Sequence record: NC_073068.1
Reading direction: 5' to 3' (one strand)
DNA length: 44,476 bases
From: Escherichia phage vB_EcoD_Pubbukkers
A program made the translations under genes and the position numbers. How positions within the stretch are numbered: position 1 is the stretch's first letter; each line of letters starts with the position of its first letter. Shown one piece after another: positions 2,025-37,665 of this stretch. The notes below the pieces were generated by a model. The model had not been told where the DNA came from and ran no database searches. It saw only the letters and a list, made by a program, of their open reading frames with translations.

Positions 2025-3545
2025 ATGACCGTTAACGTTGACAACCAGCACCCGCTCTATGCGCGCATCGCGCCAGAGTGGAAAATGATCCGCGACTGCG
2101 TAGCGGGGGAGCGCGCCGTGAAGGCGTGCGGCCCCTTGTACCTGCCACACCCCGCAAGCGGCGACACCACCGACCCGAAATCACGGGCACGGTATAAGGC
2201 GTATAAGCAACGTGCTGTCTTCCTGAACGCCACCGCCCGCACACTTAACGCGCTGTTAGGTGTCGCCTTCGCCAAACCGGTGAGTATGGACCTTTCCGGG
2301 GCAATGGCTGACCTGATTGATGACGTTGACGGCAGCGGTATGCCGCTGGCGCAACTCCTGCGCGGTGCTATGTCTGAAGTTCTGCAGTCAGGCCGTGCCG
2401 GGTTTATGGTCGACTACGACCGCCAGGCGCATTTTGACGAACTGGGTAACGTAGTACCGCAGACCGCCGCTGAAATGGCGGCACACCGCCCGCTTATCCG
2501 CCTGTATACGGCTGAACAGATCATTAACTGGCGGCAGACCCACGGGGTCGACACGCTAATCGTGCTGAAGGAAACGGACGAAATCAGCACCGAAGACCCG
2601 GACGACTTCGCAAACCACGAAGTAACGATCTGGACCGAGCTTCGCATGATTGCGGGTAAGGCCCACGCCCGCCGCTGGTTTTACAACGCTGACACGTCCG
2701 AGGTGCAGATGGACTTGCCGCGAGGCTTCACCCGCACCGACCTTGTACCATTGGTGGATGCCTCCGGTAATGCGCTAACTCAACTGCCATTTTGCTGGTG
2801 TGGCGCGGTGGACAACAACGCGACACCGGACGCCGCACCGCTGGCGGATATTGCGTCCATCAACATTAAGCACTACAACGCCGAAGCGGACGTCGCCGAG
2901 ATTGCGCACATCGTGGGCCAACCTACACTCATTGCGACTGGTCTGACCCAATCATGGGCGGACAAGAACCTGAAAGGAGGCATCGCGCTCGGGGCAACTA
3001 AGGGCGTTATCCTGGGCCAGAACATGGACGCCAAACTGCTTCAGGCGGAGGAGCGCAACTTGTCTGTTGCACTGTGTGAGCGCCGCGAATTGCAAATGGC
3101 TAAACTGGGCGCGGCCCTGGTCGAGAAGGGGACCGCACCTAAGACGGCAACCGAGGCGGCCTATGATGCACAGACTGATAACAGTATCCTGTCACTGATT
3201 GCCGGTAACGTCGAGAAGGCTTTCAACCGTGCGCTGCAAATCGTCAAGCTGTTCACGGGCGACACCGCAGATCAACGCGTAACGCTGAATAAGTTCTACA
3301 CCGAAATCACGGTTGACGCACAGCTTATGACCGCAATGATGGCGGGTGTGCAGACCGGTACGGTCCGTCTGGCGGACTTTATCAAGTGGATGATGGCCCA
3401 GGGCGTTATTGATGACTCGCAAACCGTCGAGCAGGTGGAAGACGAACTGCGAAATCAGAATCCATTGCCTCAAATGTCCCCGGATGCGGTAGAATCGACC
3501 GAAGAAGCCCCGGACGAGGTAGCGGACAATGGCGAAGACAATTAA
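2025..3545 (+). CDS. portal protein
   Basis: 506-aa ORF immediately after TerL and before a MuF-like gene; size and synteny typical of portal; acidic C-terminal tail. Confidence 0.75.
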   Translation: MTVNVDNQHPLYARIAPEWKMIRDCVAGERAVKACGPLYLPHPASGDTTDPKSRARYKAYKQRAVFLNATARTLNALLGVAFAKPVSMDLSGAMADLIDDVDGSGMPLAQLLRGAMSEVLQSGRAGFMVDYDRQAHFDELGNVVPQTAAEMAAHRPLIRLYTAEQIINWRQTHGVDTLIVLKETDEISTEDPDDFANHEVTIWTELRMIAGKAHARRWFYNADTSEVQMDLPRGFTRTDLVPLVDASGNALTQLPFCWCGAVDNNATPDAAPLADIASINIKHYNAEADVAEIAHIVGQPTLIATGLTQSWADKNLKGGIALGATKGVILGQNMDAKLLQAEERNLSVALCERRELQMAKLGAALVEKGTAPKTATEAAYDAQTDNSILSLIAGNVEKAFNRALQIVKLFTGDTADQRVTLNKFYTEITVDAQLMTAMMAGVQTGTVRLADFIKWMMAQGVIDDSQTVEQVEDELRNQNPLPQMSPDAVESTEEAPDEVADNGEDN

Positions 3546-4632
3546 TCAATATATGGCGGATCGAATGATTCGCCGTCACATCTTCACCCAGCGCCTGAGT
3601 AATGACCAGGCGCGGAGGGTGTTGGCTATGTGGGAGAAGTTCCGGCCCACGTTACTGGGTAAGCTGACCGAGTTGCTTGATGGTAAAAAGTCCATGAGCA
3701 ACAAGGCGCTTACCACCCTGTTAACGCAACTCGACAAGACCATCAAAACGGAACTGCGCACCGAGTTTAAGGTGCTGGCTGAAAGCCTTCAGGAGTTCGC
3801 CGACACCGAGGCCGATTATCTAGCCGACACATTAACGGCAGCGATCCAGCCGGTGGTCGCCGTACCGGCGGTCGAGGTGGTTGGCGTAGTGACCGGCGCG
3901 CAGATCGCAGCAACGGCAATGACAAACCCGTTCCAGGGCAATACCATGATGCAATGGCCCGACTCACTTTCTGAGTGGACCAGGACGCAGATCGGTAATC
4001 AGGTGCGGGCGGGATTCATCCAGGGCAAGCCAACGATGGAAATTATCGCGGACGTGAGGCGCGCGCTAGGCGGTCGTAGTGCGCAAGCCATCTCAAGCGT
4101 TGTTAAGTCCGCAGTCAACCACTATGCGGCGACCGCCCGCGAACTAATGGTAAAAGCAAATGACGATATTCTCGAAGGTCGCCAATGGTTATCTACATTG
4201 GACACGCATACTTCTCCCATGTGCCAGCTACGCGATCGCCTGTTTTATCCGGTTGATGTTACTCCCGACACCAAAGGAAAGCGCGGCGGGAAAGTGGTGG
4301 CTGGGTCACAATATGGCGCTGGTCCGGGCAAGTTGCATTATTGCTGCCGCTCGACGGAGACGTGGAAAGTCAAAGGTATGGAAGATTGGCCCAGTGGTAA
4401 GCGTCCGGCACTGAAGGCTGACGCAGGCAGATTGCTGAGTGAGCAGGTCGACGCGCAGACTGATTTCTTCTCATGGGTGCAGCGCCAGCCGCGCCATATC
4501 CTGGAAGAATTATATGGAGTGCAACGCGCCGACCAGATTATGCGCGGCGTGAAAGTGCCGAAGATGTTCACCGATTCTGGCGAACTGATGACTGTTGCAC
4601 AGCTTAAAAACCGGGGGTTATGGCGTGATTAA
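3529..4632 (+). CDS. head morphogenesis protein (Mu gpF / SPP1 gp7-like)
   Basis: 367 aa; start overlaps portal end; contains LSTLDTHTSPMCQLRDRLFYP, matching the conserved D-x-x-T-S-x-x-C core of the MuF domain. Confidence 0.75.
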   Translation: MAKTINQYMADRMIRRHIFTQRLSNDQARRVLAMWEKFRPTLLGKLTELLDGKKSMSNKALTTLLTQLDKTIKTELRTEFKVLAESLQEFADTEADYLADTLTAAIQPVVAVPAVEVVGVVTGAQIAATAMTNPFQGNTMMQWPDSLSEWTRTQIGNQVRAGFIQGKPTMEIIADVRRALGGRSAQAISSVVKSAVNHYAATARELMVKANDDILEGRQWLSTLDTHTSPMCQLRDRLFYPVDVTPDTKGKRGGKVVAGSQYGAGPGKLHYCCRSTETWKVKGMEDWPSGKRPALKADAGRLLSEQVDAQTDFFSWVQRQPRHILEELYGVQRADQIMRGVKVPKMFTDSGELMTVAQLKNRGLWRD

Positions 4633-36117: not shown

Positions 36118-36369
36118 TTATTTTGTCTCCCAGCGGTCAATTGTTTTTGCTTCGGACGCAACGGCGAAGCGAACATATTCCAGATTGGAGTCCGCCCAAA
36201 TATAAAAGTCGGGGTTAGTAAAGGTGGTGCGCTTAATTTGCGCGGGGGTATTGCGGCGTTTGTCTATTACGGCAACGCGGGACTTAAAATTGCCGATGCG
36301 TTCGAATAGCCAATAATACGGGCGCTGGTCGCGGGAGTCCACCGCCTCGATTAGCGTGAAGCGTGCCAT
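36118..36369 (-). CDS. hypothetical protein
   Basis: 83 aa; ATG at 36369 lies immediately after the terminator that follows the acidic-protein gene. Confidence 0.45.
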   Translation of the reverse strand: MARFTLIEAVDSRDQRPYYWLFERIGNFKSRVAVIDKRRNTPAQIKRTTFTNPDFYIWADSNLEYVRFAVASEAKTIDRWETK

Positions 36370-36380
36370 TGTCTCGTCCT

Positions 36381-36410
36381 CTAAAAAGAGGCCCGCTAAT
36401 CTGCGGGCCG
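36381..36410 (-). terminator. rho-independent terminator on minus strand
   Basis: GGCCCGC-agatta-GCGGGCC followed by UCUUUUUAG on the minus strand; separates the first early gene from the rest of the leftward operon with no room for a new promoter. Confidence 0.65.
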
Positions 36411-36417
36411 GAATATA

Positions 36418-36933
36418 TTAATCTTCCAGTTCGAAATAGGTTTCGACGATTTCTTTTAGCTCTTCGTGGAAGTCTTCGACGTCGTCATCTTCCAGCTTGG
36501 CGATTGATTTGATCTCGAACGATTCCAGCAGGTTGTCGAATTCGTCGTTCGCATCGTCGTCATCGCCACCGGCGATAATCGCGGCATACTGTTTGATTTC
36601 GTCGCGCATCTCTGCCAGCGGGTCGGCATCTTTCTTACCTTTGCCTTTCGCCGGTGCTTTCTTAGACTTAGCCGGTTTTTCGTCTTCGGCATCGTCGTCG
36701 TCATCTTCTACGACTTCTTTTTTAGCCTTACCTTTCGCCGGGGATTTTTTAGATTTAGCCGGTTTTTCGTCTTCGGCGTCATCGTCGTCATCTTCGACAA
36801 CTTCTTTTTTGGCCTTAGACGGCTTCTTATCTTCCTGTTTACCAACGGCAGCGCCAACGGTTTCATAATGCTTTGCAATGGTTTCCAGTGCTACTACGCC
36901 GCGAGTGATCAGGTTTACGATTTGCTCAAACAT
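36418..36933 (-). CDS. acidic/basic repeat protein (first gene of the leftward early operon)
   Basis: 171 aa from ATG 36933 (MFEQIVNLITRG) with RBS GGAG; two tandem ~28-aa repeats (KKEVVEDDDDDAEDEKPAKSKKxPAKGKxKK) and an acidic C-terminus; has its own promoter and terminator. Confidence 0.6.
   Translation of the reverse strand: MFEQIVNLITRGVVALETIAKHYETVGAAVGKQEDKKPSKAKKEVVEDDDDDAEDEKPAKSKKSPAKGKAKKEVVEDDDDDAEDEKPAKSKKAPAKGKGKKDADPLAEMRDEIKQYAAIIAGGDDDDANDEFDNLLESFEIKSIAKLEDDDVEDFHEELKEIVETYFELED
36635..36814. repeat. tandem ~90-bp repeat (2 units) inside the acidic-protein gene
   Basis: Units 36635-36727 and 36728-36814 are imperfect copies (ttacctttcgccgg...agccggtttttcgtcttcggc...atcgtcgtcatcttc...cttcttttttRgcc). 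Confidence 0.7.
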
Positions 36934-37129
36934 GGTATATCTCCGATTGGTTAAGTTTAGGTGTCGGCAGTTAACTTCGTCGGTGGCCTTAACATATTGC
37001 CAGGTTACGCGTTCTCCCGTTCGGGTAGTGGACCTGGTTATATAATCACGGTTGGGAATCCTGACACTTCGATCCGGCCCCTGCGTTACCCCTCTCCAGT
37101 TTGCGTCCTGCATCCTGTCGACGGGGTGA

Positions 37130-37159
37130 ATAATAGATTGGTTGCAGGATGGGTGTCAA
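37130..37159 (-). promoter_or_regulatory. sigma70-like promoter for the acidic-protein gene
   Basis: On the minus strand: -35 TTGACA (37159-37154), 18-bp spacer containing TGCAACCAAT, -10 TATTAT (37135-37130); a 7-bp inverted repeat CATCCTG/CAGGATG (37111-37117 and 37146-37152) brackets the -10. Confidence 0.5.
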
Positions 37160-37170
37160 CAACTAATTTC

Positions 37171-37206
37171 AAAAAAAAAAGCGCCGAGGCAAAATGCGAC
37201 GGCGCT
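37171..37206 (-). terminator. strong rho-independent terminator on minus strand (A10 on plus = U10 on transcript)
   Basis: On the minus strand AGCGCCG-13 nt loop-CGGCGCU followed by ten U; stem at plus 37180-37206. Confidence 0.65.
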
Positions 37207-37234
37207 AACCAATAAGAGACAATGAGACGGGAGT

Positions 37235-37263
37235 ATTATTACACGCGTGCGCGCCCGTTTCAA
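37235..37263 (-). promoter_or_regulatory. sigma70-like promoter on minus strand upstream of the U10 terminator
   Basis: -35 TTGAAA (37263-37258), 17-bp spacer, -10 AATAAT (37240-37235) on the minus strand; would give a ~55-60 nt transcript ending at 37171. Confidence 0.4.
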
Positions 37264-37335
37264 TATCCAAAGGATTTGACACCTTGCGGTTTTAGGTGTA
37301 GTTTCGTTGATCATTAACCAACTGAGGGCAGAGCA

Positions 37336-37665
37336 ATGAATGTAAACGACGCAATCGAAATGTTAACGAAGACTGTTTGCAGTGAGACTAGCCGGTCCTG
37401 GGCTTATACCGATGCCGTTGGGGAGGTGTTATTTGAAATCGAACGACTGCGCAGTGTCGAAAAAGAATTACGCGCCAGGCTGGAATTGCTCAACGGTACG
37501 GCGGCCAGCAAGCTGCAAAAGCACAATGAAGAAATGGAAGAATACAAAAAGCAGGTTATCCGTTTGCGCGCCGAGGGCAAATCCTGGGCGATGATTGCCG
37601 AGTTGACCGGAATTAATCAGAGCACAGTGCGCTCCTGGGTACGCAATAATAAAACTTCTAAGTAA
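37336..37665 (+). CDS. HTH DNA-binding protein (putative transcriptional regulator)
   Basis: 109 aa; C-terminal helix-turn-helix-like GKSWAMIAELTGINQSTVRSWVR; first gene of the rightward arm; perfect -35 TTGACA at 37276-37281 upstream. Confidence 0.55.
   Translation: MNVNDAIEMLTKTVCSETSRSWAYTDAVGEVLFEIERLRSVEKELRARLELLNGTAASKLQKHNEEMEEYKKQVIRLRAEGKSWAMIAELTGINQSTVRSWVRNNKTSK

Follow-up and report, generated by a model that had tools for sequence, protein, structure and literature searches.

In lambda, gam is promoter-proximal to bet and exo, and in T7 gene 5.9 is likewise promoter-proximal to gene 6. PopZ, from Caulobacter, is composed of an N-terminal interaction helix, a disordered Pro/Glu-rich linker of tunable length, and a C-terminal three-helix module. 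The put RNA of phage HK022 consists of two adjacent stem-loops, is about 70 nucleotides (nt) long, and acts in cis for read-through of terminators. These systems are compared here with a locus in Escherichia phage vB_EcoD_Pubbukkers (NC_073068.1), whose whole 44,476-nt sequence was analyzed and is referred to as the window. The locus is composed of a leftward gene for an acidic protein of 171 amino acids (aa), the promoter and leader RNA that precede it, and the hairpin that follows it.

The acidic-protein gene is read as the promoter-proximal expression unit of the leftward replication/recombination operon, with a product that may serve as a tethered acidic decoy or adaptor; the probability of this reading is put at roughly 0.4. 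The leader RNA is a more unexpected result than the acidic protein itself. Dhillonviruses (SECphi4/6/18, Bas14-18) are much used in phage-defense research, and the gene that they promote most strongly is one without a known function.

The acidic-protein gene and its product

The window is the genome of a Dhillonvirus, one of the HK578/SO-1-like siphophages of 43-46 kb. A megablast search with 36200..37400 returned 174 phage records, nearly all of them Dhillonvirus, the closest being Escherichia phage Over9000 (97.5%). The acidic-protein gene and a divergent control region of 400 bp sit between two operons. The rightward operon encodes a 109-aa helix-turn-helix (HTH) protein and then a 754-aa primase-helicase. 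The leftward operon runs from the acidic-protein gene through two small open reading frames (ORFs), the 83-aa gene and a 62-aa ORF, to a PD-(D/E)XK exonuclease, a gp2.5-like SSB/annealase (SSB, a protein that binds single-stranded DNA), and the DNA polymerase.

Homologues occupy the same genomic position in the Guernseyvirinae (Cornellvirus Shemara gp52; Klebsiella phage VLCpiS11a), and the gene order is matched in the window, SO-1, welsh, VLCpiS11a, and Shemara, with the acidic-protein gene promoter-proximal to the exonuclease and annealase genes in each. Between the window and the Guernseyvirinae, identity is 45-49% for the primase-helicase, 50-54% for the exonuclease, 45-50% for the SSB, 32-34% for the 83-aa protein, and 31-41% for the conserved parts of the acidic protein. 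This synteny and the similar divergence of the neighbors therefore mark the acidic-protein gene as an old, vertically inherited part of the replication/recombination module. It is present in 153 of the 153 GenBank Dhillonvirus records detected. Outside Dhillonvirus, tblastn matched only Guernseyvirinae-type phages and a few others, and the gene is not encoded by related Drexlerviridae.

The original prediction, made from the letters of the window, had placed a strong promoter (TTGACA-18-TATTAT) before this gene. The promoter is present, and no other sigma70 match anywhere in the 44.5-kb window scores as high, 10/12 being reached at just three other sites; it is kept in 18 of 18 aligned Dhillonvirus relatives. 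Transcription is predicted to start near 37123. The predicted gene coordinates were correct as well, and the start codon is backed by comparison with relatives. A longer ORF from the in-frame ATG at 37113 (231 aa; 203-232 aa in several GenBank records) was rejected as an annotation artifact. The extension is broken or deleted in 7 of 15 IMG/VR relatives, is missing from the Guernseyvirinae homologues, which begin at the aligned Met, and overlies the structured leader RNA; for these reasons ATG 36933 is taken as the real start.

Right after the stop codon, the hairpin GGCCCGC-AGATTA-GCGGGCC (36409..36390), followed by TCTTTTTAG with the U-run UCUUUUU, forms the strongest terminator-like site within 30-44 kb (dG about -17 kcal/mol; z = -3.6 against shuffles). 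Only 11 nt separate the hairpin and U-tract from the next ATG (36369). They hold the Shine-Dalgarno of the 83-aa gene, which begins within the U-tract region of the hairpin, and no sigma70-like site of at least 9/12 occurs between the start of the acidic-protein gene and ATG 36369. The claim of a terminator that leaves no room for a downstream promoter is thus borne out, and no promoter is visible for the later leftward genes. Dhillonvirus and most Guernseyvirinae-type loci keep a GC-rich hairpin and short U-run right after the stop codon, with differing sequences. Placed ahead of the remaining operon genes, the hairpin is likely an attenuator or a 3' stabilizer, an idea supported by the conservation of its position across the family.

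In some Dhillonviruses (welsh, PTXU06, EP23-like), and not in the window, an extra 37-aa ORF lies between the acidic-protein gene and the terminator hairpin. It is found at 3990..4103 in locus L001, at 3974..4087 in L002, and right after the stop codon in L010 and L015. Length differences of ~130 bp among relatives are due to insertion of this ORF and not to repeat number.

Abundant expression, as originally proposed, is supported by EE09_56 of phage EE09, an orthologue of the acidic protein. At 25 min, just four phage proteins were detected in infected cells; EE09_56 is one of them, and it is missing from the list of virion proteins (PMC10673088). Judging from promoter type and position, expression is probably early.

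The acidic protein matches the phrog_3127 profile over its full length (E = 6.3e-54; residues 1-171 against positions 1-178 of 178). Named members of phrog_3127 are Dhillonvirus 'hypothetical protein', SO-1 gp46, Shemara gp52, and Edwardsiella phage eiAU Gp46. Members share a three-part layout and a genomic position: the HTH and primase-helicase genes diverge from them, and the exonuclease and SSB genes lie downstream. The family is uncharacterized but coherent. A profile search of 5.8 billion proteins found 1,942 homologues, none with a Pfam domain or an informative name; among 1.84 billion cluster representatives (50% identity), searched exhaustively, there were 63. Searches of Pfam, NCBIfam, and PDB with the single sequence and with a 35-member profile found no relatives, and matches to BUD22, UTP23, and designed helical proteins were rejected as compositional noise.

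The protein contains 52 D+E and 29 K+R residues and has a pI of 4.4 and a net charge of -23. Two AlphaFold2 (AF2) runs were in agreement, with five concordant models, and divide it into an N-terminal helix, a linker, and a C-terminal three-helix domain (Table 1). Conservation among 35 diverse members is restricted to both ends, and the middle is unalignable. R11, A15, and E17 are invariant columns of the N-helix, and L8, V13, and A20 are nearly so. Residues about 27-94 fall below 50 in the predicted local distance difference test (pLDDT). The C-domain helices span 105-122, 126-138, and 152-167 (bundle 105-167), and the domain carries the motif LR.EI..A..I..GD.D...D.FD.LLE.Y.V..V..L.D.DV..FH, seen as GD.D...D.FD.LLE...L.D.DV..FH in a closer 14-member set. 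It is tandemly duplicated in several Guernseyvirinae-type homologues (P0001, P0048, P0125, P0128, P0135) and is therefore an independent module. The strongly acidic C-terminus noted originally is confirmed, with a net charge of -21 over the last 69 aa. Structure prediction and charge-pattern analysis, which the original prediction had proposed as a check, gave a folded bundle of that charge and a disordered, near-neutral linker (21 K+R and 23 D+E, net -2).

The linker had been described as two tandem 28-aa repeats encoded by a DNA repeat of ~90 bp. The tandem repeat is present, and its unit, as defined by Tandem Repeats Finder (TRF), is instead 29 aa or 87 bp, with KAKKEVVEDDDDDAEDEKPAKSKK(S/A)PAKG occurring twice and followed by a partial copy. 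When copy number was compared among relatives, as had also been proposed, one or two repeat units were found together with many smaller slippage variants. Across 74 Dhillon-type clusters the linker is 18-82 aa long, with 0, 1, or 2 KKEVV-type unit starts, and in one cluster the linker is almost absent. Its sequence is unconserved, yet acidic and K/R/P-rich blocks recur in the Guernseyvirinae homologues. Being disordered and tolerant of length changes, the repeat therefore builds a flexible tether and not a rigid charge array. On this domain map the ends are conserved and the repeat tether is expendable, which indicates the parts to choose for mutation and those to choose as bait.

Table 1. Features of the acidic-protein locus and its flanks, in window coordinates.
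Feature	Coordinates	Strand	Details
Mini-unit promoter, TTGAAA-17-(TG)TAATAAT	37263..37235	-	Followed by about 57 nt that end in the hairpin and U10
Mini-unit hairpin, GCGCCG..CGGCGC, and U10	37205..37181 (hairpin); 37180..37171 (U10)	-	Terminator-like
Sigma70-type promoter: TTGACA (37159..37154), 18 nt, TATTAT (37135..37130)	37130..37159	-	11/12 consensus positions
Structured leader RNA, 160 nt, at transcript 5' end	36963..37122	-	Covariance model, 136.9 bits
Short A/C-rich spacer with Shine-Dalgarno GGAG (36944..36941), 7 nt upstream of ATG	36934..36962	-	Read from sequence
Acidic-protein coding sequence, ATG 36933 to TAA 36418, 171 aa	36418..36933	-	phrog_3127
N-terminal amphipathic helix, residues 1-29, conserved	36847..36933	-	AF2 helix 2-29, pLDDT 66-73
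Disordered polyampholyte linker, residues 30-104, alternating acidic and Lys/Pro/Ala blocks	36622..36846	-	AF2 pLDDT <50
87-bp tandem repeat, 2.2 copies, encoding 29-aa linker units	36629..36817	-	TRF score 287, 87% matches
Acidic three-helix domain, residues 105-171, conserved, pI 4.05	36421..36621	-	AF2 pLDDT about 90
Terminator-like hairpin and UCUUUUUAG	36381..36409	-	7 G-C pairs, 6-nt loop
83-aa gene, next after the acidic-protein gene	36118..36369	-	phrog_4965, function unknown

Readings of the acidic protein

In the proposed mechanism, the host RNA polymerase would initiate at the genome's strongest sigma70-like promoter, and the transcript would open with the 160-nt structured RNA before a good Shine-Dalgarno directs translation of the 171-aa protein. 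Partial termination at the hairpin would leave the acidic-protein gene expressed well above the downstream enzymes. The protein appears to be without catalytic features and probably acts stoichiometrically. Its N-helix may dock or self-associate, the flexible linker would supply reach, and the acidic bundle would occupy the basic, nucleic-acid-binding surface of a putative partner, a protein of DNA metabolism; the Lys-rich blocks may contribute weak DNA affinity. The favored class of target would be DNA-end or single-stranded DNA (ssDNA)-processing machinery, either of the host (RecBCD-like, SSB clients) or of the phage, and not type I restriction enzymes. This choice is made because the gene is co-inherited with, and promoter-proximal to, the primase-helicase, exonuclease, and SSB genes, in the manner of gam-bet/exo and 5.9-6. 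Like lambda Gam and T7 gp5.9, the acidic protein is small, helical, non-enzymatic, and promoter-proximal to an exonuclease/annealase pair. Unlike them, it has no Gam profile or structure match, and its helix-tether-bundle layout is without counterpart there.

Several observations weigh against this mechanism. A natural variant has a mere 18-aa linker, so the charged repeats may matter little. The U-tracts after the hairpin are short in the Guernseyvirinae loci, and termination at this site is predicted from sequence. Dhillonviruses that lack the leader RNA keep the same gene, terminator, and operon, and the leader is therefore dispensable for the cassette. A remote relative in Salmonella phage MB78 (BFVD match Q9T1Z8, 28% identity, E = 3.6e-4) carries the unverified UniProt label '13.88 kDa late protein', which is at odds with early expression; searches of the literature on MB78 and on Dhillonvirus transcriptomics yielded nothing usable. 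Finally, co-inheritance with the replication module suits a decoy and a replisome or recombination accessory equally.

As such an accessory, the protein would serve as scaffold, loader, or hub and form a bridge between the phage's primase-helicase, SSB/annealase, exonuclease, or polymerase; in one variant, its blocky polyampholyte linker might let it assemble into a condensate-like replication focus. This alternative is rather doubtful as it stands. It draws on the fact that in two phage lineages the gene keeps strict synteny, and has diverged in step, with the replication genes, on its presence in every Dhillonvirus record, and on the C-domain duplications, which suggest a valency module. The layout of a helix, a disordered region of ~75 aa, and three helices also resembles PopZ, with which the modeled protein shares a length of about 170 aa, an acidic character, an N-helix, a disordered linker of ~75-80 aa, and a C-terminal three-helix module. 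The likeness appears to be one of architecture alone: none of the 35 members matches the PopZ profile (DUF2497), and the linker of the acidic protein is a blocky polyampholyte. There is no similarity to known loaders or organizers, the absence of the gene from related Drexlerviridae speaks against this reading, and a stoichiometric hub needs no obvious expression far above its partners. The decoy or adaptor is preferred with modest confidence, only slightly ahead of a genuine scaffold for the replisome or for recombination.

The original prediction had raised a DNA-mimic anti-restriction or host-takeover protein. A mimic of the Ocr/ArdA type would imitate B-DNA and block type I restriction or BREX right after infection. 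T7 Ocr (gp0.3) and ArdA are small, very acidic, highly expressed, and encoded by the first gene behind a strong host RNA polymerase promoter. The acidic protein is also very acidic, abundant, and promoter-proximal, with acidic positions conserved in its C-domain, and the strong net negative charge (-23 overall; C-domain -21, pI 4.05) is shared with both. Ocr and ArdA, in contrast, are rigid elongated dimers, whereas the acidic protein is composed of disordered charge repeats and a 60-residue bundle with no sequence or fold relationship to them. No rigid fold with a B-DNA-like carboxylate array was seen in it: the folded acidic part is just about 60 residues, and the acidic repeat blocks are disordered, length-variable, and sometimes nearly absent. 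Neither the window protein nor any of 35 diverse members (0/35) matched an Ocr, ArdA, Gam, or other anti-restriction profile at E <= 1; no PDB chain was found by sequence, and no solved DNA mimic was among the structural matches. The gene is inherited as a core gene with the replication module, unlike an exchangeable accessory gene. Moreover, Dhillonviruses of the BASEL collection carry the acidic-protein gene and are reported to be sensitive to type I and type II restriction-modification compared with Queuovirinae (PMC8594841). The published Dhillonvirus defense determinants (Ksap1, anti-Tmn, SSB, polymerase, portal) are other genes. Escape mutations for retron-Eco8, Borvo, and RAZR map to SSB, polymerase, and portal, and anti-Tmn is ORF35, which contains a beta-sheet and is not the acidic-protein gene (PMC11846954). 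An anti-restriction mechanism is thus unsupported, and a DNA mimic is unlikely.

It is equally improbable that the protein binds nucleic acids or remodels the nucleoid, with its Lys/Pro/Ala blocks (histone H1-, AlgP-, HupB-tail-like) holding DNA or RNA and its acidic parts regulating them: KPAKSKKSPAKGKAKK-type blocks are present, and distant homologues, whose linkers are not conserved in other respects, again have basic K/R/P blocks there, but the whole protein has a net charge of -23 and its linker is about neutral, the basic blocks are down to a few residues in some variants, and the conserved parts are the non-basic termini.

The leader RNA

The leader of about 190 nt between the promoter and the ATG was overlooked in the original prediction. 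A six-helix model of its structured portion was derived by eye, and a covariance model was built from 17 diverse sequences; the latter finds exactly one copy per phage. The RNA consists of P1, which closes the structure, a small hairpin with a GGA loop, the long hairpin P3, and a P4-P5-P6 arm whose caps are mostly GNRA-type loops. The joining strands GGAGAGG, AACGCA, AACCGUGA, CACU, AGAACGC, and CGACGAAG are invariant, and the junctions hold about 60 invariant nucleotides. A sigma70 promoter of at least 9/12 ends 6-10 nt before the RNA in 16 of 23 distinct contexts, whereas 1.3% of random positions reach that score; the transcript must therefore begin with the RNA.

Pairing was evaluated over 28 distinct sequences, with slid partners as controls. 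In the model, 90.5% of cells are paired (29-44% in the controls), and 23 of 38 pairs are changed on both sides (3-9 in the controls). The covariation score is 0.41, a value that 0 of 500 shuffles reach, against at most 0.08 in the controls. Compensatory changes among Dhillonvirus leaders turn CCAGG..CCUGG into CCUGG..CCAGG or CCCGG..CCGGG, and independent within-clade events back P1, P3 (UGUU/AACA in KA2-1, UUAAU/GUUAG in KMI8), P5 (seven different sequences), and P6. The structure is visible solely by comparison with other phages, the minimum free energy of the whole leader being no better than that of shuffles (z = 0.09). When every pair of columns was scanned for tertiary or pseudoknot covariation, the split of the sequences into two clades made the result uninformative.

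Rfam 15 gave no gathering-score hit in the window, none at E <= 10 over 36950..37125, and none at E <= 1 for six other variants. ARAGORN found no tRNA or tmRNA in the leader, and literature searches with the core sequence found nothing usable. With neither an Rfam match nor a trace in those searches, the leader RNA is the most novel item of the interval.

By blastn, the core of the RNA was found in unrelated phages of at least five genera, always in an intergenic gap and in sense orientation. These include Warwickvirus (tunus, swan01), other Drexlerviridae (Motto, KMI8), Jilinvirus (PT1, Bas97), Sortsnevirus (sortkaff, IME279), Murrayvirus (Lumpael), and unclassified phages (Arya, KA2-1, MQ-4). 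The RNA is absent from 5,426 E. coli genomes and occurs on one 42.7-kb contig among 185,579 GTDB species genomes, on 18 contigs in IMG/VR, and on 14 in JGI metagenomes. A search of IMG/VR with a 15-nt core added 44 loci, all of which were rejected as chance matches. Some host or bin labels look doubtful. A contig binned as a Cereibacter sphaeroides metagenome-assembled genome (QFQS01000013.1, 42.7 kb; L105) carries a sortkaff-like copy, and the records named Acinetobacter phage NJ01, Campylobacter phage A144, and Pseudomonas phage Motto (H25, H46, and H122) are near-identical to coliphage groups.

What lies downstream of the RNA is unrelated from phage to phage: the acidic-protein gene, genes for EaA-like proteins, an ORF of lipoprotein-like type, or assorted small ORFs. 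In Klebsiella Guernseyvirinae-like contigs that encode an acidic-protein homologue, the RNA lies elsewhere (L056, 5837..5996; L060, 2474..2633; the same contigs as L034 and L037) and precedes an ORF with a lipoprotein-like signal peptide (MKRITAIAITLAAVLGCS...). The RNA and the acidic-protein gene are therefore not obligatorily linked. Within Dhillonvirus, ~150 nt of the leader are missing in 4 of 15 IMG/VR genomes, and about 18 of 153 GenBank records (about 12%) are without the element. The short allele (L007, L009, L012, and L018, about 2440..2500) has a hairpin of ~25 nt, for example GGGC-AUACC-GCCC, between the same flanks as the long allele (GUCGACAGG ... GACACC), so both alleles put a stem near the mRNA 5' end. 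Presence and absence within one genus means that isogenic-like natural pairs exist for testing the role of the RNA.

For the leader RNA, the most probable role is that of a cis-acting, portable 'promoter plus leader' cassette by which expression is raised or tuned. In a minimal reading, it is a 5' stabilizer with an A/C-rich ribosome landing zone; A/C-rich spacers of a similar kind also come after the RNA in other phages. In HK022 put, the ompA 5' untranslated region, and the T7 gene 10 leader, as in the window, the transcript opens at its very 5' end with a structured RNA, behind which come an unstructured A/C-rich stretch and then a Shine-Dalgarno, whereas the window leader is much larger and more intricate, with its many invariant junction nucleotides. 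The invariant junctions, the GNRA-capped arms, and the horizontal spread suggest a more specific partner. A broader reading, which is possible and is offered tentatively, holds that the leader is a new phage RNA class with such a partner, swapped as a 'promoter + RNA' cassette among virulent enterobacterial siphophages, and that the acidic protein founds a class of early phage hubs or decoys with a helix-tether-acidic-bundle layout. The RNA might then be a riboswitch-like sensor, a modifier of RNA polymerase or the ribosome, or a decoy, made in abundance, against a host RNA-directed factor or defense. The RNA contains a highly conserved multi-helix junction; no conserved terminator or anti-Shine-Dalgarno pairing was seen by eye between P1 and the start codons.

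The RNA could instead be the key element of the locus in the way that HK022 put RNAs are, modifying RNA polymerase in cis so that it reads through the terminator after the acidic-protein gene and later ones. A structured RNA at +1 of an early promoter, upstream of a terminator without a downstream promoter, fits this proposal. Essential antitermination of the put type is unlikely, however, because the element-less Dhillonviruses keep an identical terminator and operon. The leader also has about 160 nt and six helices, compared with the two hairpins of put, and in other phages it is followed by unrelated genes with no consistent downstream terminator seen. This proposal is accordingly given little credence.

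Upstream and divergent features

A second, self-contained mini transcription unit (37171..37263, - strand) lies directly upstream of the main promoter. It is present in 153 of 153 Dhillonvirus records and nowhere else, and its hairpin shows compensatory changes in L018 (UCCCCG..CGGGGA). By its appearance, the unit may be a gene for a small RNA or a terminator that acts as an insulator. Within the putative small RNA, CAUUGUCUC (37213..37221) is complementary to GAGACAAUG (36367..36375), which spans the start codon of the 83-aa gene. A complementarity of 9 nt is at chance level for a 44-kb genome and is only a lead.

The cos sequence of EE09, ATCTTAAGGG, is absent from the window, where only chance-level matches with 1 mismatch were found. 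The divergent gene for the 109-aa protein (37336..37665, + strand) is labeled in GenBank as a transposase, a resolvase, or 'Gam nuclease inhibitor'. Its product matches only HTH_23 and sigma70-region-4-type helix-turn-helix models and is more likely a regulator or an origin-binding protein of the control region.

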